Source of the DNA: Malacoraja senta
Lineage: Eukaryota
Assembly (NCBI GenBank): GCA_038087875.1
Contig: CM075991.1
Coordinates: 13,456,001-13,520,000 of the forward strand
DNA length: 64,000 nucleotides
Direction of reading: 5' to 3'
Part shown: one piece after another, positions 14,845 through 58,912 of the stretch
Layout: each line of letters begins with the position of its first letter
Numbering within the stretch: position 1 is the stretch's first letter
The notes under the pieces: model-generated
What the model was told of the DNA's origin: nothing
Database searches by the model: none
The model's input: the letters and a program-made list of their open reading frames with translations, nothing else
Program-made: the position numbers and the translations under genes

Positions 14845-15215
14845 AGTGGGTGGTGAGAGTGGTCTGTGGGCCGGTGGGTGGTGAGAGTGGTCTGTGGGCT
14901 GGTGGGTGGTGAGAGTGGTCGGTCGGGCCACTGGTGGGTGGTGAGAGTGGTCTGTGGGCCGGTGGGTGGTGAGAGTGGTCTGTGGGCCGGAGGGTGGTGA
15001 GAGTGGTCTGTGGGCCGGTGGGTGGTGAGAGTGGTCTGTGGGCCGGTGGGTGGTGAGAGTGGTCTGTGGGCCGGAGGGTGGTGAGAGTGGTCTGTGGGCC
15101 GGTGGGTGGTGAGAGTGGTCTGTGGGCCGGTGGGTGGTGAGAGTGGTCGGTCGGGCCACTGGTGGGTGGTGAGAGTGGTCTGTGGGCCAGTGGGTGGTGA
15201 GAGTGGTCGGTCGGG
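14845..15215 (+). repeat. G-rich minisatellite, ~28-bp unit GGTGGGTGGTGAGAGTGGTCTGTGGGCC, about 13 copies
   Basis: Direct tandem repetition visible in the sequence. Confidence 0.95.
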
Positions 15216-18200: not shown

Positions 18201-18439
18201 CTTTGGAAGGGTACGTACTGAGTAACATCCTGCACCCTGGAAGAGCAGTGTCCAGAGTGGTTACAGTAGGTTTCTGGTGACATCTGATCTCTCTTTGGAA
18301 CAGGTTGCAGTCTGTAGTGACGAGGCTTCAATGGGCTTCTGCTCGATTTTTCCTTCCGGCACTGTGCAGCAAAATGTTGGAGATAGATCATCAGCCAGGG
18401 CAGGGCAACGCTGAAGATCCCAAAGGCCCATTGTTTCTC

Positions 18440-20040
18440 CAAATACTGAGCGATCCTGCACATACAAATAACAAGGCAAATGCAATGTTAGCATTCATTT
18501 CAAGACAACTGGAATATAAACTCAAAAAGCTGGAGTAACTCTAAAATATATATAAAGAGATGTAATGCTGAGGCTTTGGTAAGGCACTGGTCAGACCACA
18601 TGTGGAATATTATGAACAATTTTGGGACCCATATCTGAAGAGGGATATGCTGGTATTAGAGAGGGTGCAGAGGAGGTTTATGAGAATGATTGGATTAACA
18701 TATGATGAATGTTTAAAGGCTCTGGACCTGTACTCGCTGGAGTTTAGAATGATGAGGGGGGACCTCATTGAATTTGAAAGGGGGGATGTGAGAGGATGTT
18801 TCCACTAGTGGGAGAGAGTCTAGGACAAGAGGGCACAGCTTCAGATTTAAAGGATTTATCTTTAGAAAGGAGACAAGGAGGAATAAAATTAAAGAGAAAG
18901 CATATAACATTGCAAAGGTTAGTGGGGAAGCTGAAGAATTGGGAAGCTTTAAAAAACCCCAACAGAAGGTAACTAAAGGTTGCGAGTGGGCTGAGAAGTG
19001 GCAGTTGGAATACAGCATAGCAAAATGTGGAGTCATGCATTTTGGTGGTAGGAATAAAGGCGTAGACTATTTTCTAAATGGGGAGAGAATTCAGGATTTG
19101 GAGGTGCAATGGGACTCGGGAGTGCTGCTGCAGGATTCCTAAAAAGTTAATTTGCTTGTTGAATCGGTGGTAAGGAAGGCGAATGCAAAGCCGGCAGTTA
19201 TTTTGAGAGGGCCAGAATACAAATGCAGGGATGTAATGCTGAGGAGTTCCTAGGGCACTGGTCAGACCACATTTGGAATATTGTGAGCAGTTTTGGGCAC
19301 CAAATCTCAGGAAGGATGTGTTGGTCCAGAGAACATTTACGAGAATGATCTCAGGAATGATTGGGTTAAGATATGATGGCGTTTGGCGGCACTGGGCCTG
19401 TACTTGCTGGAGTTTAGAAGGATGAGGGGGAAACTCATTGAAACTTACCGAATAGTAACGGTGGATGTGGAGAGGATGTTTCCACCAGTCGGAGAGTTTT
19501 GGACCAGAAGCCATAGCCTCAGAATAAAAGGACGTACCTTCAGAAAGATGAGAAGGAATTTCTTTAGTCAGAGGGTGGTAAAGCTGTGGAATTCATTGCC
19601 ACAGACGAAGATGGAGGCCAAGTCAATGGATATTTTTGAGGCAGAGATTGACAGAATTTTTATTAGTACGGGTTTCGGGTTATGGGGATAAGGCAGGAGA
19701 ATGGGGTTGAGAGGGAAAGATAGATCAGCCCTGATTGAATGGCAGAGTAGACTTGATGGGCTGAATGGCCTTATTCTGCTCCTGTAACTTATGAATTTCT
19801 TTAGGGAGAGGGCGGTGAATCTGTGGAATTATTTGCCACAGATGGCAGCGGAGGCCAAGTCATTGGGAATTTTTAAAGTGGAGATTGACAGGTTCTTGAT
19901 TAGTAAGGTGGTCAAAGTTACGGGGAGAAGGCAGGAGAATGGGGTTGAGAGGGCAAAATAGATCAGCCATGGTTGAATGGTGGAGTAGACACGATGGGCT
20001 GAATGGCCTAATTTTGGTCCTATTACCAATGAACTTATGA
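18440..20040 (+). mobile_element. Cluster of degenerate CR1 3' fragments
   Basis: LVRPHx[17 protein letters not shown] and FFSQRVVKLWNSLPQ; two CR1 3' UTR ends at ~19790 and ~20040. Confidence 0.85.
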
Positions 20041-20414
20041 CAAGTGGCACTGGCAGAGCAGTTTGAAGGCCGACAGCTGTCTACATTGTTGGTAGCACAG
20101 GAACTGCTTCAGACAGTGAGAGATCGGGAGCCATGAATATGCTGCCAGTGAGTGTTCTACTGTTTGTAAGGTCTGTCTCGTGGGGAATTGCAGAGGAAGG
20201 ATACACAAGTAAAGGTCTTACCAGAAGTCCCGAGCAATGTCCCATACCAGGCACGGGAAGGCAGTTCAGCGGAGAAGCAGCTCAGTCTATTCCTAGTAGC
20301 ACCACATCGTCCTCAGGAATACAGAAGAGTCGGGAGTGATGAAGCTTCTACATGTTTCCCTTGGTCCATGGCCATCTCTTCAGATCTTGCCCTTTGGTCA
20401 ATCTCAAGTCAATC

Positions 20415-20626
20415 AGAGGCTGATGATCACCCTGATGAGCCCAGCCTGTGAATGCGGAGCAGAACAACTGGCAGCCAACCATGTCATCTCTGGGTGCCCG
20501 CTCTACCACCCACCAAATGGAGCTCAGGACCTGGCAGACATTGACGCAGACAACAACCTGGCTACTCAACACCCAGCTTGAGATCTAACTATTCCTTTGG
20601 CTAACGTTTCATTCGCAAGAAGAAGA
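20415..20626 (+). mobile_element. 3' end of an Ingi/Vingi-like LINE
   Basis: C-terminal CCHC motif CECGAEQLAANHVISGCPLY followed by an (AAG)n tail cgcaagaagaag. Confidence 0.55.
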
Positions 20627-22609
20627 CCCTGGAAATAGTTCAATCTCTTCCCTTCTTTGTTCTCCTGCGGTCGGGGGCCTCGAGACTTCAGTTGACGGGG
20701 TGATCTTGGCTCCCGTAGCCGGCGGTCGGGCCCTCCTCGTCGGGGTGATCAAGCTCCTGCATCGGGGGGGGGGGGGGGGGGTCTCAGCTACCCCGCGCCA
20801 GGCGATCAGACCACGGGTTGGGGCTGGTCGAACCTCCTGCGACTTTGGACCTTCCCGACATCAGTCTCTCCCCGAGTTTGCGAGCTCCTTGATGTTGAAA
20901 TCCGCAGGCCGCTGTTGGAGTGTCGATCCCAGGCAAGGATCGCAGGCTCCGATGGTAAGTCCAAGACCCTGCGGTGGGGCTCAAAGTCAGTCTTGAGCAA
21001 GGCCTCCAGCTCAGCACAAACTGGCAACACCCCCTCCTCTATAACCAACACAGGACCAGCTCAAGGCTGTGTGCTCAGTCCCCTGCTCTATGACCAGGAC
21101 TGTACAGCCAGACCATTCCAATGCCGTCTTTAAATTTCAACGACGGTACCACCGTTGTTGGACAAATAATGGGTAATGACGAGTCAGAGTACAGGAGAGA
21201 GATTGATAATCTAAGGGAATGCTGCCAATAGGACATTATTATTCCTGTTCTTCCATGTCTGCTTGGATATCCTCCAGAATGTAGTTACTGTATAGGAAGG
21301 TGGTTTACTGTAGGTGAATTTATTTCCTCATCCAGAGAGTGGCTATCAGTCATCATTGATCCTAGGTAGGTGAATTGGATGACAGTTTCCAGCTGACTGG
21401 TGTTTAGGATGTTTTCAGAGGGGAGTGGAGTGTCCTGGTCTATGACAACAGTTGTCTTAATACTGATTGCCAGTCGGTAATCATTGCAAGCAGGAGTCCA
21501 TCAGCCCCTGAAGTCCTTCTTCTGTTGGGGTGAGATGAGTGACCAATATGATCCCGATGGTTCCTCTTCCTTCTTGGCGGCGTGCCATTCCATAAGCAGT
21601 CTGACCTCCGGCACCTACCGAGGGCCCGTACTTGACACTTGTCTCAGCGGTCACTTCGGCTGCCGGGTTCGTCCTTGTTCATGGACACTGCGGGCCGAGT
21701 CCGATCTTGAGTGGCTTCAATTTTCTGTCATTCAAGTCCACGGTGATCATCAATCTTGGCCATTTCCTGTCATCAGAAACCGACCTGGTAAATGGAGACA
21801 AGAATGGAGTCTTGAAGATTTCCGATCCAAACCGTTGTCTGTCCAATCCCTCCGCAGATGAAATGTCCTCTCGGAGTCGTGTCCTCGATCGACCTGTCAT
21901 CCACCTTCAAACAATCTGGAGGAGATCCAGCGCCCTAAGAAATCCCACCGTTGTTCCTCAACAGCTTCTCCAGTGCCAGGTGTGGAAGTTCGCAGAGAAC
22001 GTGGAGCAAGATTGGGTCTTCAGGATCTTCAAGCATCTGACATGCAAGTCCATGATGATCGTCAACCTTGGCCATTTCCTGTCATCAGAAACCGACCTAG
22101 TAAATGGAGACAAGAAGGGTCTCGATCCAAATGTCATCTGTCCATTTCCTCCGCAGATGCTGCCTGACCGCTGTGTTCCTCCGGCAGTTTTCTGCTCCAC
22201 CTTCGCTGACAGCCCAGCTGTAAAAACACATCTCTATCGCGGTCTTCCACTGAGGGCAGTTTACAGAGGAACAGCTCCACATTCCCAGTGACACCATATC
22301 TTCCTCAGCACCACAGCAGGGTCAGGTGTGATGAAGCTTCTGTGTGCCAGCCCTGGTCCATGGCCGTCTCTTCAGATCTTGTCCTCTGGTCAATCACAGG
22401 AAACATGGCAGAGGTCGATGACCTCAGGAGGGGAAAGCCGATGATCTACAAACTTGTCTTCATTCAGGGACAGTGGTGGAGAACGTTATGTTGCAAGTTC
22501 CTAGGTGTCCATGTCTCTGAAGATCTGTCCTGGATGTCCTCACACATCTCCTTAACCATGTCTCTGCTCAATCTTGTACAACTGGATCTTCAATTTCCTC
22601 ATCAGCAGA

Positions 22610-23005
22610 CCACAATCAGCACAAACGGGCAACACCTCGTCCTCTATAACCAACACAGGACCAGCTCAAGACTCTGTGCTCAGTCCCCTGCTCTATGACC
22701 AGGACTGCACACCCAGACCACCCCAATGCCTTCTTTAAATTTCACCAACGATACCACCATTGTTGGACAAATGATGGATAATGATGAGTCAGAGTATAGG
22801 AGAGAGATTGATAATCTGAGGGAATGCTGCCAGTGCAGACGTTTTGTTCTCAATGTCCGCAGGACCACAGAGCTATTTGTTGACCTCAGGAGAAAGCCAC
22901 AGATCCACAAACTTTACTTAATTGATGGGACAGTGGTGGAGAAAGTTGTTCCAAGATCCTGCTTCAAGTTTCTGGGCGTTTATATCTCTGAAGACCTGTC
23001 CTGGT
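22610..23005 (+). mobile_element. Degenerate Rex1-like RT fragment (a similar piece at 21010-21230; duplicate at 26935-27330)
   Basis: FTNDTTIVGQMMDNDESEYRREID...FKFLGVYISEDLSW. Confidence 0.75.
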
Positions 23006-23129
23006 TCCGACGTGTCCCATTTTGTTCTCCACATCACTCCTCGACCGACCTCCGGCACCCACTGCGGGCCCGTCCTAGGCTGCCCACCACCGGGTCCTCT
23101 CTTGGTCCTCTCCCATTCATTTACCGTTC

Positions 23130-23965
23130 TTGATGTAGGTAAGCCGCCCAAGCTTCACTGCTGTACAGTAACGTGTTCAACACTCATGCATTGTAGACAG
23201 TTACCTTGGTCTTCATTGTGAGTTTCCTGTTCTTCCATGTCCACTTGCTTAGTCTCCCGAAGGTGGGTGCTGTAGAGGAAGGTGGTTTACTGTACGTGAA
23301 TTAGTTTCCTCATCCAGAGAGTGGCTGTCAGTCACCGTAGATCCTAGGTTGTTGAATTTAAGACATTTTCCAGCGTAGTGGAGTTTATGGTGATTTCAGA
23401 GGGGAATGGAATGCCCTGACCCATGACAACAGTCATCTTAACGCTGATTGCCGGTCGGTCTTTGGTGCAAGCATGAGACAGTCTGTCCATCAGTCCCTGA
23501 AGTCCTCCTTCTTTTGGGGAGCTGAGTGCTGCATCATCAGCAGGCTGGAGTTCCCTTATAAGCACAGTTCTCATCTTCGTCTTTGCTTTCAACATTGCCA
23601 CATTGAAGAGCATCCCATCACTTCTGGTTTGAAGATACACATCTTCCGTGCCTGTTGGGAAGGCGAAGGGCAGAAGGGCAGATCGGAAGATGCCGAACAC
23701 CATGGGAGTTGGGACACAGCCTTGCTTCACTCCACTTCTCATGGGGAAACTGTCCGATGTAGCTTCATCAAATTCCACTGTAGATGCATGTTCTCATGGA
23801 AGGAGGTTTAGAAGACGTGGTGGACATCTAAACTTCTCCAGTAGCTGATAGAGGCCGTGTCTGCTGACGGAATCAAAAGCTTTTGTAAGATCCACAATGG
23901 AGTTTGCTGCTCTGGACATTTTTCTTGGATTTGACACAGGGAGAAGATCATGTCCATTGTGGATC
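23130..23965 (-). mobile_element. Degenerate RTE-clade RT fragment (also 21240-21540, 36960-37130; duplicate at 27455-28290)
   Basis: SGVKQGCV.TPMVFGIF...TRSDGMLFN.AMLKAKTK..VLIRELQ.ADDAAL. Confidence 0.85.
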
Positions 23966-25395
23966 CAAGTCTTCGGAGGAACTTTCCCTCCGAAGACTTG
24001 CAGGAAAATGTCACTGGGGCAGATGATGAGTCAGAGCCAGACGAGTTTGACAAATTTCTTAAACGCTGTGGATTCTCACGTGCAACAGATCGCTGCCAGT
24101 TCTACTGGGAAATGTTGACAATGAAATCCCAAATGCAGACGAGAGCGCGGGCGGGGAAGAGGTTGTAGCTCTTTCTAGTAGTGGCTCTTAAAAGGGCCTT
24201 TGTTGGACAGAGTGAGAAATTCCGGTGCGGTCCCCACTGATGTGGCTTCATATCCGATGGTTTTATACGAACGGCTCGGGTTCCTGACATCCATTTTCTC
24301 TATTTTTGGGCTTCTGTTGCGTGCTATCCAATCCCTCTTGGAGTTGCATGGGAGAATCCACACCGTTTAAGAAATTTGTCAAACTCGTCCAGCTCTGACT
24401 CATCATCTGCCCCAGTGGCATTTTCTTGTAAGTCTTTGGAGGGAAACTTCCTCGCAAACAGCTGGTGACCACATCAGTCGGCAGATGTTTCATGCCTTCC
24501 GCTTCACACCGTCTGGAGGATATCCGGGGCGACAAGAAGTCCCACCAAGTTGTTCCTCAACAGCTTCTCCAATGTTCGGTGTGGAAGGTCACGTTGAACG
24601 TAGAGCTAGATTGGGCCTTTGGGATCTTCAAGGATCTGTCATTCAAGTCCACGGTGATCATCAAACTTGACCATTTCCTGTCGTCGGAAACCGACCTGGT
24701 AAATGGAGACAAGAATGGAGTCTTGAAGGATCCCGATCCAAATGTCATCTGTCCACTCCCTCCGCAGATGCCGTGTTCTCTCGGCGGCACGTCCTCGACC
24801 GACCTGCAGCACCCACCAAGGGCCCGTCCTCGACCAACCGCCGGCACTCACACATCTGTCATGTTTGTCCCTTCAGACAATCTGGAGGAGATCCAGGGCC
24901 ACAAGAAATCCCACCAAGTTGTTCCAACAGCTTCTCCAGCTCCAGGTGTGGAAGGGCGCAGAGAACTTGGAGCAAAATTGGGTCTTCAGGATCTTTCAAT
25001 CATCTCTCACTCCAGTCCATGGTGATCATCAATCTTTGCCATTTCCTGTCATCATAATCCAACCTGGTAAATGGAGACAAGAATGGTGTATTGAAGGGTC
25101 CCGATCATAACATCGTCTGTCCATTCCCTCCATAGATGCAGCCTGACCCACTGAGTTCCTACAGCAGTTTTCTGCTCCAACTTCGCTGACAGCCGAGCTC
25201 TTGAAATACATCTCCATCATGGTCATCCACTGAGGGCAGTTTACAGAGGATCAGCTCCACATTCCCAGTGACACCAGATCTTCCTCAGCAACACAGCAGG
25301 GTCAGGTGTGATGAAGCTTCTGCGTGCCAGCCCTGGTCCATGGCCATCTCGTCAGATCTTGTCCTCTGGTCAATCACAGGAAACATGGCAGAGGT

Positions 25396-25595
25396 NNNNN
25401 NNNNNNNNNNNNNNNNNNNNNNNNNNNNNNNNNNNNNNNNNNNNNNNNNNNNNNNNNNNNNNNNNNNNNNNNNNNNNNNNNNNNNNNNNNNNNNNNNNNN
25501 NNNNNNNNNNNNNNNNNNNNNNNNNNNNNNNNNNNNNNNNNNNNNNNNNNNNNNNNNNNNNNNNNNNNNNNNNNNNNNNNNNNNNNNNNNNNNNN
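25396..25595. other. Assembly gap, 200 N
   Basis: Run of N. Confidence 1.
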
Positions 25596-28500
25596 CTCCA
25601 GAATGTAGTTACTGTATAGGAAGGTGGTTTACTGTAGGTGAATTTATTTCCTCATCCAGAGAGTGGCTATCAGTCATCATTGATCCTAGGTAGGTGAATT
25701 GGATGACAGTTTCCAGCTGACTGGTGTTTAGGATGTTTTCAGAGGGGAGTGGAGTGTCCTGGTCTATGACAACAGTTGTCTTAATACTGATTGCCAGTCG
25801 GTAATCATTGCAAGCAGGAGTCCATCAGCCCCTGAAGTCCTTCTTCTGTTGGGGTGAGATGAGTGACCAATATGATCCCGATGGTTCCTCTTCCTTCTTG
25901 GCGGCGTGCCATTCCATAAGCAGTCTGACCTCCGGCACCTACCGAGGGCCCGTACTTGACACTTGTCTCAGCGGTCACTTCGGCTGCCGGGTTCGTCCTT
26001 GTTCATGGACACTGCGGGCCGAGTCCGATCTTGAGCGGCTTCAATTTTCTGTCATTCAAGTCCACGGTGATCATCAATCTTGGCCATTTCCTGTCATCAG
26101 AAACCGACCTGGTAAATGGAGACAAGAATGGAGTCTTGAAGATTTCCGATCCAAACCGTTGTCTGTCCAATCCCTCCGCAGATGAAATGTCCTCTCGGAG
26201 TCGTGTCCTCGATCGACCTGTCATCCACCTTCAAACAATCTGGAGGAGATCCAGCGCCCTAAGAAATCCCACCGTTGTTCCTCAACAGCTTCTCCAGTGC
26301 CAGGTGTGGAAGTTCGCAGAGAACGTGGAGCAAGATTGGGTCTTCAGGATCTTCAAGCATCTGACATGCAAGTCCATGATGATCGTCAACCTTGGCCATT
26401 TCCTGTCATCAGAAACCGACCTAGTAAATGGAGACAAGAAGGGTCTCGATCCAAATGTCATCTGTCCATTTCCTCCGCAGATGCTGCCTGACCGCTGTGT
26501 TCCTCCGGCAGTTTTCTGCTCCACCTTCGCTGACAGCCCAGCTGTAAAAACACATCTCTATCGCGGTCTTCCACTGAGGGCAGTTTACAGAGGAACAGCT
26601 CCACATTCCCAGTGACACCATATCTTCCTCAGCACCACAGCAGGGTCAGGTGTGATGAAGCTTCTGTGTGCCAGCCCTGGTCCATGGCCGTCTCTTCAGA
26701 TCTTGTCCTCTGGTCAATCACAGGAAACATGGCAGAGGTCGATGACCTCAGGAGGGGAAAGCCGATGATCTACAAAACTTGTCTTCATTCAGGGACAGTG
26801 GTGGAGAACGTTATGTTGCAAGTTCCTAGGTGTCCATGTCTCTGAAGATCTGTCCTGGATGTCCTCACACATCTCCTTAACCATGTCTCTGCTCAATCTT
26901 GTACAACTGGATCTTCAATTTCCTCATCAGCAGACCACAATCAGCACAAACGGGCAACACCTCGTCCTCTATAACCAACACAGGACCAGCTCAAGACTCT
27001 GTGCTCAGTCCCCTGCTCTATGACCAGGACTGCACACCCAGACCACCCCAATGCCTTCTTTAAATTTCACCAACGATACCACCATTGTTGGACAAATGAT
27101 GGATAATGATGAGTCAGAGTATAGGAGAGAGATTGATAATCTGAGGGAATGCTGCCAGTGCAGACGTTTTGTTCTCAATGTCCGCAGGACCACAGAGCTA
27201 TTTGTTGACCTCAGGAGAAAGCCACAGATCCACAAACTTTACTTAATTGATGGGACAGTGGTGGAGAAAGTTGTTCCAAGATCCTGCTTCAAGTTTCTGG
27301 GCGTTTATATCTCTGAAGACCTGTCCTGGTTCCGACGTGTCCCATTTTGTTCTCCACATCACTCCTCGACCGACCTCCGGCACCCACTGCGGGCCCGTCC
27401 TAGGCTGCCCACCACCGGGTCCTCTCTTGGTCCTCTCCCATTCATTTACCGTTCTTGATGTAGGTAAGCCGCCCAAGCTTCACTGCTGTACAGTAACGTG
27501 TTCAACACTCATGCATTGTAGACAGTTACCTTGGTCTTCATTGTGAGTTTCCTGTTCTTCCATGTCCACTTGCTTAGTCTCCCGAAGGTGGGTGCTGTAG
27601 AGGAAGGTGGTTTACTGTACGTGAATTAGTTTCCTCATCCAGAGAGTGGCTGTCAGTCACCGTAGATCCTAGGTTGTTGAATTTAAGACATTTTCCAGCG
27701 TAGTGGAGTTTATGGTGATTTCAGAGGGGAATGGAATGCCCTGACCCATGACAACAGTCATCTTAACGCTGATTGCCGGTCGGTCTTTGGTGCAAGCATG
27801 AGACAGTCTGTCCATCAGTCCCTGAAGTCCTCCTTCTTTTGGGGAGCTGAGTGCTGCATCATCAGCAGGCTGGAGTTCCCTTATAAGCACAGTTCTCATC
27901 TTCGTCTTTGCTTTCAACATTGCCACATTGAAGAGCATCCCATCACTTCTGGTTTGAAGATACACATCTTCCGTGCCTGTTGGGAAGGCGAAGGGCAGAA
28001 GGGCAGATCGGAAGATGCCGAACACCATGGGAGTTGGGACACAGCCTTGCTTCACTCCACTTCTCATGGGGAAACTGTCCGATGTAGCTTCATCAAATTC
28101 CACTGTAGATGCATGTTCTCATGGAAGGAGGTTTAGAAGACGTGGTGGACATCTAAACTTCTCCAGTAGCTGATAGAGGCCGTGTCTGCTGACGGAATCA
28201 AAAGCTTTTGTAAGATCCACAATGGAGTTTGCTGCTCTGGACATTTTTCTTGGATTTGACACAGGGAGAAGATCATGTCCATTGTGGATCCAAGTCTTCG
28301 GAGGAACTTTCCCTCCGAAGACTTGCAGGAAAATGTCACTGGGGCAGATGATGAGTCAGAGCCAGACGAGTTTGACAAATTTCTTAAACGCTGTGGATTC
28401 TCACGTGCAACAGATCGCTGCCAGTTCTACTGGGAAATGTTGACAATGAAATCCCAAATGCAGACGAGAGCGCGGGCGGGGAAGAGGTTGTAGCTCTTTC

Positions 28501-29764
28501 TAGTAGTGGCTCTTAAAAGGGCCTTTGTTGGACAGAGTGAGAAATTCCGGTGCGGTCCCCACTGATGTGGCTTCATATCCGATGGTTTTATACGAACGGC
28601 TCGGGTTCCTGACATCCATTTTCTCTATTTTTGGGCTTCTGTTGCGTGCTATCCAATCCCTCTTGGAGTTGCATGGGAGAATCCACACCGTTTAAGAAAT
28701 TTGTCAAACTCGTCCAGCTCTGACTCATCATCTGCCCCAGTGGCATTTTCTTGTAAGTCTTTGGAGGGAAACTTCCTCGCAAACAGCTGGTGACCACATC
28801 AGTCGGCAGATGTTTCATGCCTTCCGCTTCACACCGTCTGGAGGATATCCGGGGCGACAAGAAGTCCCACCAAGTTGTTCCTCAACAGCTTCTCCAATGT
28901 TCGGTGTGGAAGGTCACGTTGAACGTAGAGCTAGATTGGGCCTTTGGGATCTTCAAGGATCTGTCATTCAAGTCCACGGTGATCATCAAACTTGACCATT
29001 TCCTGTCGTCGGAAACCGACCTGGTAAATGGAGACAAGAATGGAGTCTTGAAGGATCCCGATCCAAATGTCATCTGTCCACTCCCTCCGCAGATGCCGTG
29101 TTCTCTCGGCGGCACGTCCTCGACCGACCTGCAGCACCCACCAAGGGCCCGTCCTCGACCAACCGCCGGCACTCACACATCTGTCATGTTTGTCCCTTCA
29201 GACAATCTGGAGGAGATCCAGGGCCACAAGAAATCCCACCAAGTTGTTCCAACAGCTTCTCCAGCTCCAGGTGTGGAAGGGCGCAGAGAACTTGGAGCAA
29301 AATTGGGTCTTCAGGATCTTTCAATCATCTCTCACTCCAGTCCATGGTGATCATCAATCTTTGCCATTTCCTGTCATCATAATCCAACCTGGTAAATGGA
29401 GACAAGAATGGTGTATTGAAGGGTCCCGATCATAACATCGTCTGTCCATTCCCTCCATAGATGCAGCCTGACCCACTGAGTTCCTACAGCAGTTTTCTGC
29501 TCCAACTTCGCTGACAGCCGAGCTCTTGAAATACATCTCCATCATGGTCATCCACTGAGGGCAGTTTACAGAGGATCAGCTCCACATTCCCAGTGACACC
29601 AGATCTTCCTCAGCAACACAGCAGGGTCAGGTGTGATGAAGCTTCTGCGTGCCAGCCCTGGTCCATGGCCATCTCGTCAGATCTTGTCCTCTGGTCAATC
29701 ACAGGAAACATGGCAGAGGTCGATGACCTCAGGAGGGGAAAGCCGATGATCCACAAACATGTCT

Positions 29765-30237: not shown

Positions 30238-31984
30238 GTGTCAGGACAGTGGTGGAGAACGTTATGTTGCAAGTTCCTCGTTGTCCATATCTCTGAAGAT
30301 CTGTCCTGGGTCCAGTACATCAATGCAATCACACACAAAACTTATGACCACCTCTATAAGCTTTTGTAACATCCACAAAGGCGATGAACATGGGGTTTGC
30401 TGCTCTTGACATTTTACTTGTATTTAACACAGGGAAAAGATCATGTCCATTGTGGATCTACCTCCATGGAAACCGCCTTGTGCCTCAGGTCACCGAGTCT
30501 GTTCAGTCTTTGCAGGATCACTCTGGCAAAGGCCTTTCCTGTAACACTCAGAAGTCAGATGTCCCTATAGTTGGTGCACTGCCTTGTTCTTGTACAGTGA
30601 CAATGTCGGTGTTACGTGTGTGTTACGCAGAAACTGCTCAGTCCGTCACAGGTGATGATCTCTTCACCATCAAAGGGATCTACAGGAGATGCAACCTGCA
30701 AAAGGCAACCCACAATGCCCGACCAGTGTGAAAAGCCAACAGAAGCAGGGAAACTGACCTCCATGTTTAAGAGCAGCTCCTTCACAGCAATTACAAGCCT
30801 CTCGAACACTGCACATGAACCACAACAATGAGATATTATGGAATGCGTCTTTTGCTGCCCGACAGATGTTTTTTACACTAGCATTCAATTATTAAATTCC
30901 TGTATTTTTATTTTATTAGTTATCTGTGTGTCATTGCACTACGCTCCCATTATTTTGTTCAGAAGCTCAAAAAACGTGACCTCCAGGTTCAGGAACAGCT
31001 TCTTCCCAGCAACCATCAGGCTCTTGAACACTGCCCGACACAAACCACATCTATGAACTGTGAAGAACGATGGACTGAGTCTTTGGTTGCATTACAGACA
31101 TGTTTACAGTAGTATCGTGAGTATAAATTTACTGAAATGTAAACTAATGCATTTTTGTGTTGTTGCAATTACAGGCTTGATAATCTACAGCAAGAAATCC
31201 ACCCCTCCCCCACCCCCACAACCACCCCCCCTCCCCCACCCATCCCTCCCCCACACCCCCCACTCCCTCCTCCCATGCTCCCTCCCTCCCCCAAACACCC
31301 CCCTCCTTCCATATCCTCCCGCATCCCCCCCAACACACCGCACGCCCACACCCCCCCTCTCCCACCCACACCTCACCCCAGCCCACCCCCTACCACTGCC
31401 CACAGACCCCCCCTCTCCGGCCCAACAACGCTCGTTGCCCCCTCCCTCCTCTCCCCTCCACACACCCCCCAATCCCCCACACACACTCCTCCCCTACACA
31501 ACCCCCGCCCACACACACCCCGCCAACACAACACAAGAACTCTGCACTTACATCCTCCTCACAGTTCACACTGCCACCCAGCTTTGTGTCATCTGCAAAT
31601 TTGCTAATGTTACTTGTAATCCCTTCACCTAAATCATTAATATATATTGTAAATAGCCGCGGTCCCAGCACCGAGCCTTGTGGTACCCCACTAGTCTCTG
31701 CCTGCCATTCGGAAAGGGACCCGTTAATCCCTACTCTTTGTTTCCTGTCTGGCAACCAATTTTCTATCCATGTCAGCACTCTACCCCCAATACCATGTGC
31801 CCTAATTTTGCCCATTAATTTCCTATGTGGGACCTTATCGAATGCTTTCTGAAAGACCAGGTACACTACATCCATTGGCTCTCCCTTGTCCATTTTCCTA
31901 GTTACATCTTCAAAAAATTCCAGAAGATTAGTAAAGCATGAATTCCCCTTCATAATTCCATGCTGACTCGGACCGATCCTGTTA

Positions 31985-33448
31985 AGGGCCAGTCCCACTT
32001 GGGAGACATTTTTGGCGACAGCCTGAAGAGGTTGTCGCGTCGTGACGCGGTGTGACGCATGTAGTGACGTGCGGTGTCTCCCTGTCGCCCCTGGATTTTG
32101 GAATGTTCAAAATCCAGGGGCAACATCTGGGTGTCTCATCATGTCGTGCGCCCTGTCACACGCTGACGTATGCTGTCCTGCGGGTGACCCCCGGTTAGGG
32201 TTAGGGTAAGAGACCACAGATGGGCTGTAAAATATTCTTCCTTCAATGCATCGATTTTAAACATTCATATATAAAATTAATACAATAAAATCAATTGTGC
32301 AAATAAAAAGATGTCTGAGTCATTCAGATTTATTCACAGATGTATTGGTCCGTTTCCAGATCCAATCACCCAGTTTTCAACTGTACCCAGTTGAAAAGCC
32401 CGCTGCCTCTGGGGGTTTGGAGAGACCATTGGAAGAGAGATCTGGGACAACTCGTGGTCAACAGTTTACTTCCCATGAGCAGGCAGAAAATTGGGGGTTC
32501 GAGTCCAACCCCTGGGGCCCCTGTATCACATTTAGTTCAGAGATACAGTGCCCATCGGCCCACCGTGTCCGCACCGACCAGCGATCCCCCGCACACTATA
32601 CCACACACGCTAGGAACAATTTATACTTATACCAAGCTTACCAACCTAGAGTTAGGGTTAGGCTTAGTGTTAGTTAGGGTTATGGTTATGGTTAGGGTTA
32701 GTGTTAGTGTTAGTGTTAGGCTTAGGGCTTGGGTTTGTATGAATTGTCCCTAGCGTGTGTGGGATAGTGTGCAGGTATTTGCTGATCGCAGGCTGGGTCC
32801 ACAAATGGGGGCATCGGGGAAAATGGGGTGGGGGGATTGGAGAATGGGAGAAGGGAGGGAGAGGGGGAGAAGGGGTTGTGAGGGGAGGGGGGGCAGTGAA
32901 GAAGGGGGGAGGAGTGGAGCGGGGAGAAGGGAGGAAGAGGGGGTAAGGGAAGAAGGGGGGGAGGGGAGAAGGGGAGAGGAGTGGAGCGGGGAGAAGGGAG
33001 GAAGAGGGGATAAGGGAAGAAGGGGGGGAGGGGAGAAGGGTAGGGTGGGTAGTGGAGAAGGAGGGATGGAGCGGGAGGTGGGAAGAGGGGGGTGAAGGGG
33101 AGAGGGGAGTTCAGTCTACACTCACTGAATCCATCCCTGTGAAAAGTTAGAGACGGTGAATGGATCTGGAAGCGGACCAATACATCTGTAAATAAAACTG
33201 AACGACTCAAACATCATTTCATTTGCACAATTGATTTTATTGTATTAATTTTAATATATTAATATTTAAAATCCATGCATTGAAGGAAGAATATTTTACG
33301 GCCCATCTGTGGACCCTAACCCAAACCCTAACCGGGCGTCACCCGCAGGACAGCATACGTCAGCGTGTATGTCGTACAACTTGACTGTTTTACAGGCGTC
33401 AGTCACTGACGTTCGCAGTCGCCGAAAAAATCGCAAAGTGGGACAGGG
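31985..33448. mobile_element. Non-autonomous PIF/Harbinger-like element, copy 1, inserted in a CR1
   Basis: Left TIR AGGGCCAGTCCCACTT after TTA; right TIR AAGTGGGACAGG (clipped); internal ~210-bp inverted repeats. Confidence 0.75.
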
Positions 33449-34733
33449 AAATGTGCCGCTATTTCATCTTTTATAATTGACTCCAGCATCTTCCCCACCA
33501 CCGATGTCAGGCTAAATGGTCTATAATTCCGTTTTCTCTCTCCCGTCTTTCTTAAATGTGGGCTAACATTAGCTACCCTCCAATCCTCAGTCACATCAGT
33601 TTACCCAACACCATTTCCTGCCTAATGTGGATTTCCTTCAGTTCCTCAGTCACCCCAGATCCTCTGGCCACTAGTACATCAGGAACATTGTTTGTGTCCT
33701 CTTTAGTGAAGACGGATCTAAAATACCTGTTCAACTCATCTGCCATTTCCTTGTTCCCCATAATAAATTCACCCTTTTCAGTCTTCAAGGGTACAACTGT
33801 GGTCTTAACTATTTTTTTTCCTCTTCACATACCTAAAGAAACGTTTACTATCCTCCTTCATATTTTTGGCTAGCTTACCTTCGTACACCCCCACCCAAAC
33901 CCCCTCTCCCGCACACACACTCCCTCACCCACCGCCCCCCACCACACACACCCTCAACCCACACCCCTCCCAAACACACTCCCTCCCCCACATACACCCC
34001 CCACCCACACACCCCTCACTGCCACCCACACACGACCCTCTCTGGCTCCACAACGCTTGCTCCCTCCCTCCCTCCACAACACACACACCCCCACTCACAA
34101 AGCCCCCTCCAGCGAAACAATGTTTCCTGCACTCCCTCCCCTCCCTCCCACACACCGCGCCAACACCATTTTCAGTCTTCAAGGGTACAGTACAACTTTG
34201 GTCTTAACTATTTTTTTCCTCTTCAAATACCTAAAGAAGCTTTTACTATCCTCCTTTTATATTTGTGCCTAACTTACCTTCGTACCCCCCCCCCCCACCA
34301 CAGCCCCCTCCCCCACCACCCCTCTCCTTCCTCCCACTTCCTACCTCCTCCCGTACCCCCTCCCCTACCCACACCCCCTCCCCCACCCCCCATGCTCCCT
34401 CACCTCCCCCAAACACACACCCCGCCTTGCGGTACCTCACTAGTCACTGCCAGTCATTCTGAAAGGGACCCGTTAATCTCTACTCTTTGTTTCCTGTCTG
34501 GCAACCAATTTTCTATCCATGTCAGCACTCTACCCCCAATACCATGTGCCCTAATTTTGCCCACTAATCTCCTATGTGGGACCTTATTGAATGCTTTCTG
34601 AAAGTCCAGGTACACTACATCCACTGGCTCTCCCTTGTCTATTTTCCTAGTTACATCCTCAAAAACTTCCAGAAGATTAGTCAAGCATGATTTCCCCTTT
34701 GTAATTCCATACTGACTAGGACCAATCCTGTTA

Positions 34734-36154
34734 AGGGCCAGTCCCACTTGGGAGACATTTTTGGCGACAGCCCGAAGAGGTTGTCGCGTCGTGGTTGGGT
34801 CGTGTTGGTTGTGACGCATGTAGTGACGTGCAGTGTCTCCCTGTCGCCCCTGGATTTTGGAATGTTCAAAATCCAGGGGCAACATCTGGGTGTCTCATCA
34901 TGTCGTGCGCCCTGTCACACGCTGACGTGTGCTGTCCTGCGGGTGAGTTAGGGTTAGGGTAAGAGACCACAGATGGGCTGTAAAATATTCTTCCTTCAAT
35001 ACATCGATTTTAAACATTCATATATAAAATGAATACAATAAAATCAATTGTGGAAATAAAAAGATGCCTGAGTCGTTCAGATTTATTCACAGATGTATTG
35101 GTCCGTTTCCAGATCCAATCACCCAGTTTTCAACTGTACCCAGTTGAAACGCCCACTGCCTCTGGGGATTTGGAGAGACTATTGGAAAAGAGATCTGCCC
35201 TCTGGGACAACTCGTGGCCAACAGTTTAGTTCCCATGAGCAGGCAGAAAATTGAGGGTTTGAGTCCAACCCCTGGGGCCCCTGTAGCACATTTAGTTCAG
35301 AGATACAGTGCCCATCAGCCCACCGTGTCCGCACCGACCAGCGATCCCCCGCACACTATACCACACACGCTAGGGACAATTTATATATATACCAAGCCTG
35401 TCAACCAAGAGTTAGGGTTAGGCTTAGTGTTAGAGTTATGGTTAGGGGTAGTGTTAGTGTTAGGGTTAGGGTTATGGCTAGGGTTAGGGCTCGGGTTTAT
35501 TATATACTGTCCCTAACATGTGTGGGCTAATGAGCTGGTATTTGCTGGTCGCAGGCTGGGTCCACAAATGGGGGGCATCGGGGAAAATGGTGGGGGGGGG
35601 GGGGTTGGAGAATGGGAGGGAGAGGGGGAGAAGGGGATGTGAGGGGAGGGGGGGAGTGAAGAAGGGGAGAAGAGTGGAGTGGGGAGAAGGGAGGAAGAGG
35701 GGGGAAAGGGAGGAATGGGGAGAGAGGAGTGGAGAAGGATGGAAGGAGCGGGAGGGGGGAATAGGGGGGTGGAGGGGAGAATAGGGGGGTGGAGGGGAGA
35801 GGGGAGTTCAGTCTACACTCACTGAATCCATCCCTGTGAATAGTTAGAGACGGTGATTGGATCTGGAAGCGGACCAATACATCTGTAAATAAAACTGAAT
35901 GACTCAAACATCTTTTCATTTGCACAATTGATTTTATTGTATTAATTTTAATATATTAATGTTTAAAATCCATGCATTGAAGGAAGAATATTTTACAGCC
36001 CATCTGTGGACCCTAACCCTAATCCTAACCCTAACCGGGCGTCACCCGCAGAACAGCATACGTCAGCGTGTATGTCGTACAACTTGACGGTTTTATGGGC
36101 GTCAGTCACTGACGCTCGCAGTCACCGAAAAAATCGCAAAGTGGGACAGGCCCT
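34734..36154. mobile_element. Non-autonomous PIF/Harbinger-like element, copy 2
   Basis: TTA|AGGGCCAGTCCCACTT...AAGTGGGACAGGCCCT|GTA; the CR1 sequence rejoins across it. Confidence 0.8.
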
Positions 36155-37129
36155 GTACTGCTATCCAAATGTGCCTCTATTTCATCTTTTATAATTGACT
36201 CCAGCATCTTCCCCACCACCGATGTCAGGCTAACTGGTCTATAATTCCGTTTTCTCTCTCCCGTCTTTCTTAAATGTGGGCTAACATTAGCTCCCCTCCA
36301 ATCCTTAGTCACATCAGTTGACCCAACACCATTTCCTGACTAATGTGGATTTCCTTCAGTTCCTCAGTCACCCCAGATCCTCTGGCCACCAGTACATCAG
36401 GAAGATTGTTTGTGTCCTCCTTAGTGAAGACAGATCCAAAATACCTGTTCAACTCATCCGCCATTTCCTTGTTCCCCATAATAAATTCACTCTTTTCAGT
36501 CTTCAAGGGTACAACTGTGGTCTTAACTCTTTTTTTCCTCTTCACATACCTAAAGAAGCTTTTACTATCCTCCTTTATATTCTTGGCTAGCTTACCTTCG
36601 TACCCCCCACCCCACCCCCGCTCTCCCTCACACACACCCCTCTCCCCCCTCCCACATCCTCCCTCCCTCCGCACCCTCTCCCCCACACACCGCCCGCCCC
36701 CACCCACAAACCCCTCCCCTCCCCCACACACCCCGCCAACAGAAGAACTCTGCACTTACAAACTGAGACTTGAAAAATGGCACCAAACCTGGACTCTCTG
36801 TCTACTATCTCAATCTACTACCGTTATACACTTGTACCGTATCCGAGATGCTTATTTAAGATTTGTCAGTGATTATGTATGGTGATACACGTATTAAAGT
36901 GTTTACAGAAATGAATTTCACTTTAGCTTGGTAAATATGACTAATAAAGAACCATTGGACATTTATAAGCACAGTTCTTACCTTGGTCTTGGCTTTCAAC
37001 ATTGCTAGAATGAAGAGGTTACTGTCGCTTCTAGTGTGAAGATACGCTCCTGTGTCAGTCGTGAAGACAAAGGACAGAGGGCAGATAGGAAGATGCCGAA
37101 CAGCATGGGAGCTGGGACACATCTTTGCT

Positions 37130-38000
37130 TCAATAGGCAATTGGTGCAGGAGTAGGCCATTCGGCCCTTCGATCCAGCACCGCCATTCGATGTGATCATG
37201 GCTGATTATCCACAATCAGTACCCCGTTCCTGCCTTCTCCCATATCCCCTTGACTCCGCTATCTTTAAGAGCCCTATCGAGCTCATTCTTGAAAGTTTCC
37301 AGAGAAGTGTCCTCCACTGCCCTCTGAGGCAGAGAATTCCACAGACTCACAACTCTCTGTGTGAAAAAGTTTCCCCATCTCTGGTCTAAATGGCTTACCC
37401 CTTATCCATAAACTGTGGCTGACTCCCCCAACACCTGGAACATGTTTCCCGTCTCTAGAGTGTCCAAACCCTTAATAATCTTATATGTTTCAATAAGATC
37501 CCCTCTCAGCATATGACAGCCCCACCATCCCGGGAATTAACTTTGTAAACCTACACTGCACTCCTTCAATAGCATGAATGTCCTTCCTCAAATTTGGAGA
37601 CCAGAACTGCATACAATACTCCAGGTGTGGTCTCACTAGGGCCATGTACAACTGCAGAAGGACCTCTCTGCTCCGATACACAACTTCCTCTTGTTATGAA
37701 GGCTAACATGCCATTCGCTTTCTTCACTGCCTGGTGTACCTGCATGCTTACTTTCATTAACTGATGAACAAGGACCCCCAGATCCTGTTGTACTTCCCCT
37801 TTTCCCAACTTGTCACCCCACTAGTCACTGCCTGCCATTCTGAAAGGGACCCGTTAATCCCTACTCTTTGTTTCCTGTCTGCAACCAATTTTCTACCCAT
37901 CAGCACTCTACCCCCAATACTATGTGCCCTAATTTTGCCCACTAATCTCCTATGTGGGACCTTACCAAATGCTTTCTGAAAGTCCATGTACACTACATCC
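37130..38000 (-). mobile_element. Degenerate CR1 with an internal deletion
   Basis: YMDFQKAFGKVPH and [22 protein letters not shown]1 3' UTR at 37130-37260. Confidence 0.88.
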
Positions 38001-38629
38001 TTCAAGCCTCCATTCTAGTCTCCATTCACCAGGTCAGTTAAGGACAACAGCAGATAGCAGAGGTTGATGATCGCTATGGACTGGAATAACACATGGTTGA
38101 AGATCCCAAAGGCCAATCTTGCTCCACGTTCTACATGACCGTCCACACCTGGCGCTGGAGAAGCTGTTGAGGATGGTGTGAAGGGGAAAACATGAAACAT
38201 CTGCTGACTGATGTGGTCGCCAGCTGGTTGCGAGGAACTTTCCCTCCAAAGACTTGCAGGAAAATGCCACTGGGGCAGGTGATGAGTCAGAGCTGGAGTT
38301 TGACAAATTTCTTAAATGCCGTGGATTCTCCCCTGGGAAATGTTGACGATGAAATCCCCAATACAGATGAGAGTGCGGGCAGGGTGGTTAGTGGCTCTTA
38401 AAATGGCCTTTATTGGACGAAGTGAGAAATTCCGGTGCGCTCCCCACAGATGTGGCTTCAAATCCGATGGTTTTACACGAACGGCGATCAAGTTCCTGAT
38501 GTTCATTTTATCTGTTTTAGTTTAGTTTAGTTTAGATTAATCTGGTTTACTTTAGATTAGTTTATATTGTCATATGTACTGAGGTACAGTGAAAGGCTTT
38601 TGTTGCGTTCTATCCAATCCCTCTTGGGG

Positions 38630-39611
38630 TTGCACAGGAGAATCCACAATATTTAAGAAATTTGTCAAACTCCTCCAGCTCTGACTCATCACCTGCCCCA
38701 GTGGCATTTTCCTGCAAGTCTTTGGAGGGAAAGTTCCTCGCAACCAGCTGGCGACCACATCAGTCAGCAGATGTTTCATGTTTTCCCCTTCACACCATCT
38801 GGAGGAGATCCAGGTCGACAAGAAATCCCACCAAGTTGTTCCTCAACAGCTTCTCCAGCGCCAGGTGTGGAAGGTCACAGAGAACTTGGAGCAAGATTGG
38901 CCTTTGGGATCTTCAACGATGTCATTCCAACCCATGGTGACCATCAACCTCTGGTACCTGCTGTCTCGGAAACTGACCTGTTAAATGGAGACTAGAATGG
39001 AGTCTTGAAGGGTCACGATCCAAAACGCCGTCTGTCCATTCCCTCCATAGATGCTGCCTGACCCGCTGAGTTCCTCCAGCTCTTTTTCTTCTTACCGAGG
39101 AGATTGAACCTCACCGATCTCCGACAAGATCTCTGTCTGGAAGCACATCTCGGTCGCGGTCTCGCACGCCATCGTCTTCAAGGCTGGTGGCAGAGCGGTC
39201 CAGGGGCGCTGGATCTACTCGGAGCCAACCTGACCTGTAGATGTTTGTGCGTAGCTGGACTTGCGGGGACTTAGCGCCGGTAGGTTTGTGTAACCGCGAA
39301 CACCATCAATGGAGCAGAATGACACAAGAAAGAGACTCCCCGCCCTCACCCCCCCTTCATACTCACCCCTCGCTCCTCTGGACAGGGCGGGTGGGAAGGA
39401 AGGAGTGACCCCTGAGAGGATATTTTATTAAATTGGGGGAAAGGGGCGATATCTTTGGTTTTGACCGTTGGTCGTGTCCGGAACGCAGACCCGGTCCGGC
39501 CGGTGAAGTCTCGCTGACCAGTGGGATGACCAGAGCGATGGGTTGTGTCTTGAAGGATCCCTGGCGGGAGCGCGCCGCTGTCCACTCGCGTTCAGGTTCT
39601 TCTCCGGCCAT
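38630..39611 (-). pseudogene. Unidentified compact exon-like unit (candidate exons 39611-39367, 39234-39096, 38977 onward); gene, pseudogene or mobile-element gene
   Basis: Kozak-like gacgATGg ~40 nt after the TATA box; GTGAGT and GTAAGA donors; CAG acceptors; compatible phases. There is an in-frame TGA at 39111-39113 and the third segment is frameshifted. No homology recognised. Confidence 0.35.
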
Positions 39612-39639
39612 CGTCCACGGACACTGCGGACGATGCCTG

Positions 39640-39885
39640 GACAGCACCGCCTTTTATAGACACTGCCATGTCCCGCCCCCCTCGATGACCATTGGACCTC
39701 ACTCCGGCCACGGCGTTGGGCCATGGGGTGGACAGTCCATCCGATTGGCGGAGACCGCTGTCCGTCAAACCCGCCAAACTTCAGCGCCAAACTTCAGCGC
39801 GCGAAGGACAGCTCGTGCGAAGCGATTGTCCGTTCGCTCCGGCCACGAGCCCCGCGTGACCCCCCCCCACTGGCGCCAAGTCGGA
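39640..39885 (-). promoter_or_regulatory. Putative CpG-rich promoter (TATA, two CCAAT, GC box, clustered E2F-like sites)
   Basis: On the - strand: TATAAAAG 39651-39658, GC box 39672-39680, CCAAT 39691-39695 and 39744-39748, TTTGGCGG 39771-39778, TTTGGCGC 39784-39791, TTCGCGCG ~39798-39805. Confidence 0.6.
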
Positions 39886-40870
39886 CACTGAGGGAAATGA
39901 GGGAGATGAGGGACACTTGAGGAAGATTTTAATGACCATTGGTCACTGAGGGAATGAAGGACACTGAGGGTCAGTTGGTCACTGAGGGACTGCCAGACTG
40001 AGGGTCATTGAGGGAGCACCGGACACTGACCGATGTTGAGGGACTGAGGGACACTTGAGTGGATGAGGGACATTGCGGGGATGAGGGACATTGAGGGGAT
40101 GAGGGACACTTGAGGGGATGAGGGACATTGAGGGGATGAGGGACATTGAGGGGATGAGGGACACTTGAGGGGATGAGGGACATTGAGGGGATGAGGGACA
40201 TTGAGGGGATGAGGGGCATTGAGGGGATGAGGGACACTTGAGTGGATGAGGGACATTGAGGGGATGAGGGACACTTGAGTGGATGAGGGACATTGAGGGG
40301 ATGAGGGACATTGAGGGGATGAGGGACACTTGAGTGGATGAGGGACATTGAGGGGATGAGGGACATTGTGGGGATGAGAGACATTGTGGGGATGAGGGAC
40401 ATTGAGGGGATGAGGGACACTTGAGTGGATGAGGGGCATTGAGGGGATGAGGGGCATTGAGGGGATGACGGACATTGAGGGGATGAGGGACATTGAGTGG
40501 ATGAGGGACATTGAGGGGATGAGGGACATTGAGGGGATGAGGGGCATTGAGGGGATGAGGGACACTTGAGGGGATGAGGGACATTGAGGGGATGAGGGAC
40601 ATTGAGGGGATGAGGGGCATTGAGGGGATGAGGGACACTTGAGTGGATGAGGGACATTGAGGGGATGAGGGACATTGTGGGGATGAGGGACATTGAGGGG
40701 ATGAGGGACATTGAGTGGATGAGGGACATTGAAGGGATGAGGGACCATTGAGGGGATGAGGGACCGCTGCTCATTGAGTGTCTGGTGGATGCTGAGGGAA
40801 TGAGGACACTGAGGGAATGAGGACACTGAGGGAATGAGGCACGCTGAGGAGATGAGGGGCACCGAGGAAT
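39885..40870 (+). repeat. Purine-rich minisatellite, 18/20-bp units GAGGGACATTGAGGGGAT / GAGGGACACTTGAGTGGAT
   Basis: About 40 tandem units, homogeneous over 40040-40765 with degenerate flanks. Confidence 0.95.
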
Positions 40871-57422: not shown

Positions 57423-58912
57423 TAGAAACATAGAAAATAGGTGCCGGAGTAGGCCATTCGGCCCTTCGAGCCTGCACCGCCATTTGATATGATCATGGCT
57501 GATCATCCAACTTAGTATCCCATCCCTGCCTTCTCTCCATACCCCCTGATCCCTTTAGCCACAAGGGCCACATCTAACTCCCTCTTAAATATAGCCAATG
57601 AACTGGCCTCAACTACCTTCTGTGGCAGAGAATTCCACAGATTCACCACTCTCTGTGTAAAAAATGATTTCCTCATCTCGGTCCAAAAAGTCTTCCCTCT
57701 TATCCTTAAACTGTGACCTCTATTTCTGGACTTCCCCAACATCGGGAATAATCTTCCTGCATCTAGCCTGTCTAACCCCTTAAGAATTTTGTAAGTTTCT
57801 ATAAGATCCCCCCTCAGTCTTCTGAATTCCAACGTGTACAAACCGAGTCTATCCAGTCTTTCCTCATATGAAAGTCCTGCCATCCCAGGAATCAGTCTGA
57901 TGAACCTTCTCTGTACTCCCTCTATGGCAAGAATGTCTTTCCTCAGATTAGGAGACCAAAACTGTACGCAATACTCCAGGTGTGGTCTCACCAAGACCCT
58001 GTACAACTGCAGTAGAACCTCCCTGCTCTTATACTCAAATCCTTTTGCTATGAATGCTAACATACCATTTGCTTTCTTCACTGCCTGCTGCACCTGCATT
58101 CCTACTTTCAATGACTGGTGTACCATGACACCCAGGTCTCGTTGCATCTCCCCTTTTCCTAATCGGCCACCATTCAGATTATAGTCTACTTTCCTGTTTT
58201 TGCCACCAAAGTGGATAACCTCACATTTATCCACATTATACTGCATCTGCCATGCCTTTGACCACTCACCCAACCTATCCAGGTCACCGTGCAGCCTCCT
58301 AGCATCCTCCTCACAGCTAACACTGCCCCCCAGCTTCGTGTCATCCGCAAACTTGGAGATGTTGCATTCAATTCCCTCATCCAGATCATTAATATATATT
58401 GTAAATAGCTGGGGTCCCAGCACTGAGCCTTGCGGTACCCCACTAGTCACTGCCTGCCATTCTGAAAAGGACCCGTTTACTCCTACTCTTTGCTTCCTGT
58501 CTGCCAGCCAGTTCTCTATCCACATCAATACTGAACCCCCAATACCATATGCTTTAAGTTTGTATACTAATCTCTTATGTGGGACCTTGTCGAAAGCCTT
58601 CTGAAAGTCCAGATATAACACATCCACTGGTTCTCCCTTATCCACTCTACTAGTTACATCCTCGAAAAATTCTATAAGATTCGTCAGACACGATTTACCT
58701 TGCATAAATCCATGCTGACTTTGTCCAATGAACTCACCACTTTCCAAATGTGCTGCTATCCCATCTTTAATAACTAACTCCTGAATTTTCACCACCACCG
58801 ATGTTAGACTAACTGGTCTGTAATTCCCCGTTTTCTCTCTCCCTTTTTAAAAAGTGGGGTTACATTAGCTACCCTCCAGTCCTCAGGAACTACTCCAGAA
58901 TCTAAAGAGTTT
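57423..58912 (-). mobile_element. CR1-clade LINE, 5'-truncated, with a 428-aa open RT/C-terminal ORF, in HK2 intron 1
   Basis: Same motifs and family as 9005-10400. Confidence 0.95.

Follow-up and report, generated by a model that had tools for sequence, protein, structure and literature searches.

What is a compact, CpG-rich stretch with the promoter motifs of an S-phase gene, followed by small introns and an open frame, doing on the - strand among repeats? An earlier note on this DNA had read positions 38630-39885 of the 64,000-nt stretch that we analyzed as a whole (the window) as an isolated, lineage-specific spliced gene, or else as a non-coding RNA or the relic of a mobile or viral element. 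Our own answer, which we hold to be probable rather than settled, is that the unit is a rearranged histone H3-derived multi-copy sequence: likely a family of dead pseudogenes, amplified as DNA, in which the promoter of an ancestral replication-dependent H3 gene has likely been kept. The earlier note missed this H3 origin, which would account for the third proposed exon (segment 3) and the 3' end and, plausibly, for the promoter as well.

The promoter motifs of the earlier reading are all present on the - strand and in the order described. Two E2F-like sites (TTTGGCGC at 39791 and TTTGGCGG at 39778), which are one 13-nt tandem duplication, are followed by CCAAT boxes at 39748 and 39695 (53 nt apart), a GC box at 39679, and the TATA-box sequence TATAAAAG at 39658, 47 nt ahead of the ATG, and together they mark a candidate S-phase-type Pol II promoter at 39650-39800. 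We summarized this arrangement as a promoter grammar (TATA box, two CCAAT boxes, GC box, and E2F-like site within 200 nt) that was defined after seeing the site; in this post hoc form, 0/5000 dinucleotide-shuffled versions of the 801-nt island contained it and the window has it at a single site, and TATA plus two CCAAT boxes alone came up in 3/5000 shuffles of the same island. Judged by its letters, the promoter looks real and S-phase-like. The observed/expected CpG ratio is 0.80-0.85 over 39001-40000 compared to 0.40 for the whole window, and 0.90-1.05 in the promoter and proposed exons compared to 0.30 in segment 3; three other H3 remnants of the window have values of 0.20-0.51. This retention of CpGs in the 5' part fits a promoter with continuing protection in the germ line. 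Abutting the promoter on its upstream side is a CpG-poor minisatellite of 18/19-nt units (39890-40830, around 50 units), and a second, GC-rich minisatellite with units of around 25 nt is found inside a CpG-rich stretch at 14860-15230.

A weak PDB match to the H3 tail prompted a direct test for H3 sequence. Briefly, we took as references 120 metagenome loci with an H3 C-terminus and a stem-loop at their end, of which 51 have a full collinear coding sequence; the remaining ones were dropped as truncated or non-collinear, and a DNA profile was built from the 28 GC-rich loci among the 51. This profile matched the window 15 times at E<0.05, always between 18.1 and 38.9 kb and with a best E of 4e-12, compared to a best E of 6.4 in the reversed window as control; 10 distinct H3 remnants are left after removing 5 matches in a duplicated block (see below). 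A protein-level check of the whole window gave top scores of 66, 66, 66, and 61 against maxima of 39-60 for 25 shuffled proteins. Profiles of H4, H2A, H2B, and H1 (15, 8, 2, and 1 sequences) had no matches in the window at E<=1, and no active histone cluster, in the sense of an intact H3 gene with H4, H2A, H2B, or H1 nearby, was found with these profiles, which are thin for H2B and H1. An H3 codon motif derived from the window retrieved no close H3 gene from the metagenomes. As an observation apart, one viral-collection contig carries two adjacent H3 genes (362-772 and 992-1414), one that resembles canonical H3 and another whose tail is divergent, and a second contig likewise carries a variant H3 (L003 and L002, respectively).

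Segment 3 (38595-39005) is a frameshifted, internally deleted H3 coding sequence on the + strand, opposite to the promoter. H3 nt 26-82 align at 38714-38769 and nt 149-250 at 38803-38905, collinearly and with an E of around 2e-4, and a frameshift-aware protein alignment to H3 scores 64, with a null maximum of 42 and 0/200 shuffles reaching it. The H3 frame is disabled by frameshifts, a deletion of H3 nt ~83-148, and the inversion, and no frame is constrained among the copies of segment 3 in the window (dN/dS 0.62-0.94 over 12 frame tests). The earlier note had also seen a possible longer frame here. Antisense frames of real H3 match this same region, and the protein-like look of the frame comes from its position over the antisense of H3.

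The 3' end of the unit is of histone type as well. An H3 C-terminus remnant on the - strand (38434-38457, H3 nt 385-408; P ~3e-4 over 21 allowed positions before the stem-loop) is followed after around 22 nt by a decayed histone-mRNA stem-loop (38393-38408, - strand) that keeps 4 of 6 stem pairs. The spacing is the same in a paralog at 24 kb and is 20-40 nt in the 51 reference loci, which had been picked by a pattern allowing 10-40 nt. Allowing one mismatch, the stem-loop pattern has 5 matches in the window compared to 0.33 expected, all at the focal site, this paralog, and the paralog's duplicate, and the focal 3' end matches real H3 3' ends by blastn with an E of 0.002. The focal stem-loop has no Rfam match at E<=10. 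The paralog (24158-24771, - strand), which is 86% identical to segment 3 and its tail, is better kept: it reaches 26.8 bits with the Rfam Histone3 model (E 4.9e-5; gathering score of 34 not reached, and 0 matches in the window at gathering scores), has an H3 C-terminus at 24247 (P ~8e-4), and carries a purine-rich AAAGAG 8 nt behind the stem-loop, which we take to be a U7-binding element. This downstream element is absent behind the focal stem-loop. Read-through frames of the paralog have no Pfam match and no longer or near-length homolog.

Behind the focal stem-loop, a second, inverted arm of segment 3 lies at 37999-38331, with H3 sense on the - strand. The two arms are identical over 127 nt (38172-38298 and 38673-38799) and 82-93% identical elsewhere, which suggests, as far as the alignment goes, recent gene conversion between them; the identical stretch includes at least one letter (38692) that is not shared with relatives or the paralog. 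In a read-through transcript, the arms are predicted to form a hairpin of -660 kcal/mol, a value with no shuffles at this length beside it. Between stem-loop and segment 3, the focal copy alone carries the inserted tail of another common repeat (38520-38600, matching 10718-10781), which is absent from the 24-kb paralog and has very high depth in relatives. A LINE fragment adjoins the inverted arm (37133-38000, - strand; 73-81% identical to 9023-10213 and 57430-58625, whose ORFs carry RVT_1).

The unit is not isolated, as had been thought. Positions 38595-39086 recur at 21.7-22.2 kb, 24.3-25.2 kb, and, inverted, 38.0-38.3 kb with 78-86% identity, and the remaining 801 nt (39088-39888), which have no second copy in the window, receive coverage from numerous variant contigs of two other organisms (see below). 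On the - strand, one paralog at 24851-25329 consists of an H3 sense remnant (nt 102-271), a short repeat, and antisense segment 3, and paralogs at 21715-22343 comprise a sense remnant (nt 108-202), the short repeat, and antisense pieces of segment 3. Further remnants on this strand are the best-kept one of the window (20214-20359, H3 nt 100-247, E 4e-12) and one at 18156-18329 (H3 nt 111-319, E 2e-6). The short repeat at 39005-39086 (+ strand) is very common, with 29 blastn matches in the window including itself and a summed depth in the millions in relatives, and it supplies most of the second proposed intron. We take it to be a Penelope-type terminal repeat with a hammerhead core that has decayed here; a hammerhead model had no match in the best region tried. 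In three copies, H3 sense sequence is thus followed by the short repeat and then by H3 antisense, with weak sense matches in the focal one. The landmark to which exon 2 corresponds precedes the short repeat by 65-66 nt in two paralogs and by 88 nt in the focal copy, and the inverted arm begins at the same place in two copies that are 13% apart. As a side observation, the blocks 21701-25395 and 26025-29720, which flank a 200-N gap, agree at 3693 of 3694 positions; the pair is probably an assembly duplicate, and matches within it were counted once.

For the sense part of the focal copy, the H3 origin is less certain. A weak remnant resembling the H3 N-terminal tail (39234-39287, - strand, H3 nt 28-81; PSSM P ~0.04) lies inside the first proposed intron, and an H3 core remnant (39134-39165, - strand, H3 nt ~238-261; PSSM P ~0.01) lies inside the second proposed exon. 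The two are in H3 order on the - strand, as weak matches that were picked after the fact. A frameshift-aware H3 score of 54 over 39096-39366, one of 9 regions tested, was reached by 1/200 shuffles. At 22.2 kb (22190-22345), the H3 remnant ends in sequence to which the exon-2 stretch aligns without gaps (a match reached by 0/500 shuffles), and the remnant at 25.2 kb aligns at the same landmark without significance (41/500 shuffles); two other remnants showed no link to exon 2, so that three of the four remnants are without a significant one. Intron 1 and exon 2 contain no detectable inverted copy of segment 3. The ATG and the tail-like remnant are around 300 extra nt apart.

Where, then, does the promoter come from? 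TATA, CCAAT, GC box, and E2F motifs are all listed for human core-histone promoters in Table 1 of PMC1794435. The TATA-ATG distance of 47 nt falls among those of H3 genes, where it is 37-103 nt in 29 of 30 TATA-bearing loci. Among 49 H3 upstream regions, from loci that are presumably mostly invertebrate, TATA plus two CCAAT boxes are found in 15, an E2F-like site in 9, and a GC box in 4. The promoter and exon 1 together (around 520 nt) do not align to any part of 122 histone loci and do not match the profiles of H3, H4, H2A, H2B, or H1 (H2B, n=2; H1, n=1 sequences). One of the loci (L030) matches the TATA box region over 14 nt, which we set aside as uninformative. Motif set and spacing make it likely, in our analysis, that the promoter was inherited from a histone H3 gene.

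Related organisms were searched for further copies. In six of 10 listed runs, from 5 organisms, 0.24-0.33 of the words sampled from the 801 nt are present, and among four runs that were aligned, DNA contigs from two relatives (X8 and X4) cover all 30 bins, including the promoter and both proposed introns. The summed depth over 39120-39890 is 161-814 in X8 and 166-1961 in X4, compared to 11-135 for most single listed contigs, although summed contig depth is no copy number. Many short variant contigs are present, up to 12 contigs carry the same variant, and one contig bridges 38887-39146 unspliced. This coverage of the region, introns included, by contigs of multiple variants points to a multi-copy family copied as DNA, and we estimate tens of copies.

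H3 pieces thus lie on both strands, an H3 C-terminus is followed by a histone stem-loop, paralogs are found locally, and the sequence is multi-copy; the order of events, the origin of the promoter, and the absence of function are what we infer. At the start would have stood an H3 gene on the - strand with promoter, coding sequence, stem-loop, and downstream element. It would have been broken near H3 nt 260-270 by the short common repeat and by its own coding sequence, copied in inverted orientation, a second inverted arm would then have been gained behind the stem-loop, and the unit would have been duplicated locally and elsewhere at the DNA level, with each copy decaying. Histone pseudogenes as such are ordinary, and histone clusters evolve by birth and death (PMC13525598). 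With H3 pseudogenes and orphons, the unit shares H3 remnants, a stem-loop at normal distance, the promoter motif set, and decayed copies side by side; it differs in its internal inversion, the interruption by a short repeat, around 300 nt of extra sequence, the lack of other histone types nearby, and its amplification as a derived unit in related genomes. Several observations speak against this explanation: the promoter and exon 1 are without H3 similarity and around 300 nt of the latter are not explained by H3, the H3 matches in intron 1 and exon 2 are weak, the 5' CpGs were kept while segment 3 and other remnants lost theirs, an open frame of this length is uncommon in shuffles (see below), and E2F-like sites and GC boxes are rare in H3 upstream regions. 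The 300 nt of exon 1, the CpG retention, the 127-nt arm pair, and the hairpin therefore keep two other readings alive, a mobile element and a live RNA.

An unlikely reading is that a non-autonomous mobile element (a DNA transposon, an LTR-type element, or one mobilized by Penelope) captured H3 pieces, and that the promoter and exon 1 belong to this element. It would account for the many variant copies in relatives, for the lack of H3 similarity of promoter and exon 1, and for the common short repeat inside the unit, and it has a precedent in Dothideomycete fungi, where H3 was captured and amplified as an inactive repeat family by a hAT transposon (PMC6710886). The likeness ends with the inactive H3 repeats themselves: here, no transposon ends or transposase were found, and decay looks like CpG loss plus indels. 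Specifically, at three guessed pairs of ends, terminal inverted repeats were lacking and target-site duplications unconvincing (6-8 nt at best, as expected by chance), the frames tested have no homology to transposase, reverse transcriptase, or gag, and the local clustering of paralogs fits segmental duplication. The two ends of the unit share an 8-nt direct repeat, which was rejected as being at chance level and a minisatellite variant. The earlier note had allowed for an LTR; CCAAT, TATA, and AATAAA (at 39429, - strand) do follow each other as in a solo LTR, but the window holds no second LTR copy, internal retroelement genes, or gag/pol match, and the 3' end is of histone type. The relic of a repeated element was among the options raised in that note; no viral or LTR feature was found, and a solo LTR is still conceivable.

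We regard it as unlikely that the family still functions as a non-coding RNA, with the promoter driving an S-phase or germ-line transcript that contains antisense H3 and feeds small-RNA pathways, and give the same low credence to the accompanying idea that this transcript is ended by the stem-loop in some copies and forms a long hairpin in read-through copies. Long inverted, gene-derived arms downstream of a Pol II promoter are also what is seen at hairpin endo-siRNA loci, which are pseudogene-derived inverted repeats; here, the arms are strongly diverged from H3, and the likeness comes from sequence and predicted fold. The intact promoter grammar, the kept CpG island, the common starting point of the inverted arm in two copies 13% apart, the 127 identical nt of the arms with at least one letter private to the focal pair, and the stem-loop with downstream element kept in a paralog all argue for a live RNA. 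Against it stand a read depth of 0 over 39120-39890 (promoter and exons 1-2) in a poly(A) run (X10; 1108 million letters, around 6% of the run, from another organism and with tissue unspecified), in which poly(A) selection would miss stem-loop-ended RNA, and the fact that listed contigs of relatives differ in the promoter (91-94% identity) about as much as in segment 3 (89-94%). Moreover, identity of arms is expected from gene conversion in any palindrome. Reads of the same run on segment 3 (depth <=2.4, first mate on the - strand) are too few and too diverged to use. Taken furthest, and at similarly long odds, this would be a cartilaginous-fish repeat family born from H3 with a live S-phase promoter and a histone-type 3' end, whose non-polyadenylated antisense or long-hairpin RNA would ride on the histone mRNA machinery as a selfish element or as a small-RNA source tuning histone expression in germ line or embryo.

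The model of the earlier note, in which these pieces would have given rise de novo to a young, spliced protein-coding gene or gene family, is in our view very improbable. Its parts can all be read in the sequence: a Kozak ATG at 39611 on the - strand, 47 nt after the TATA box, GT-AG segments at 39366-39235 (132 nt) and 39095-38978 (118 nt), and joined exons that give a 122-aa peptide ending in TGA. The length of the frame is a point in its favor, as open frames after a Kozak ATG are uncommon in shuffles (>=122 aa in 3/500, >=82 aa in 14/500; the real sequence reaches 105 aa by the same one-intron procedure as used on shuffles). The splice signals do not rise above chance: 1.3 kb of sequence would by chance contain 0.6 and 1.5 donors of this quality, and 9 of 16 positions at the first acceptor are pyrimidines. 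The 82-aa unspliced ORF of exon 1 (39367-39611) has no Pfam family, no candidate homolog among proteins of 45-144 aa, no atlas match, and a low recognition score, and exon 1 has no homolog among 1.84 billion representatives; the sole phmmer match (P0001) was discarded as weak matches summed against a tandem-repeat ORF. At the DNA level, the 5' part of exon 1 weakly resembles the junction of intron 2 and segment 3 as well as the upstream part of the paralog, with z of 2.0-3.5 depending on gap costs. Junctions 39367/39234 and 39096/38977, which the note had proposed to look for, are absent among those listed for the poly(A) run, which has no exon reads either (weak evidence against the gene), and contigs of another run (X1, flagged as probably DNA) cross both borders of exon 2 unspliced. 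In relatives, 6 of 7 differing codons in exons 1-2 are non-synonymous, from only 8 differences among those listed, and some copies have frameshifting indels or, in one case, an 8-nt skip over the ATG. It is a small point for the gene that the listed indels are commoner in intron 1 (6 entries, probably from 3 contig lineages) than in exons 1-2 (2 entries plus the 8-nt skip). We infer that exons, introns, and the 122-aa peptide are chance readings across H3-derived pieces. That the unit could be the relic of a DNA virus early gene has only the promoter style and the small GT-AG segments on its side and is hardly credible, given the same lack of homologs among 1.84 billion representatives and host H3 accounting for segment 3 and the 3' end; a match to a viral contig (L001) was a chance one of 10 residues inside an unrelated 498-aa ORF.

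In the literature covered, passages of the little skate genome paper (PMC10115646) included, we came across no account of repeats derived from H3 in cartilaginous fishes, and the family may already be catalogued as an unnamed repeat. If the decayed H3 family that we favor is indeed dead, it calls for caution in annotation: what looks like an orphan CpG-island "gene" under a cell-cycle promoter may turn out to be debris of histone genes, and a protein-like frame may be the antisense of H3. It would also show that an interspersed repeat can arise from histone genes in a vertebrate lineage. Should the promoter be live, regulatory parts of histone genes would have been re-used for antisense or hairpin RNA.

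Beyond the unit itself, a field of H3 remnants without any other histone type extends over 18156-29654, between the FIGLA-like and hexokinase first exons, and looks unannotated. The hexokinase first exon at 56575 has its best matches in HK1 chains (E 0.018). These neighbors fit the account given in the earlier note; we take their names to be HK2 and FIGLA and the DNA to be of cartilaginous-fish origin. At 1019-1552, a 177-codon open stretch on the - strand adjoins the common short repeat and has no Pfam match at E<=0.1; we presume that it resembles a Penelope endonuclease region. Finally, a unit of around 2.7 kb occurs twice at 31200-36750 (93-96% identity), with LINE pieces, C-rich tracts, telomere-like TTAGGG runs, internal inverted repeats, and CpG-rich ends, and may be a nested mobile element.
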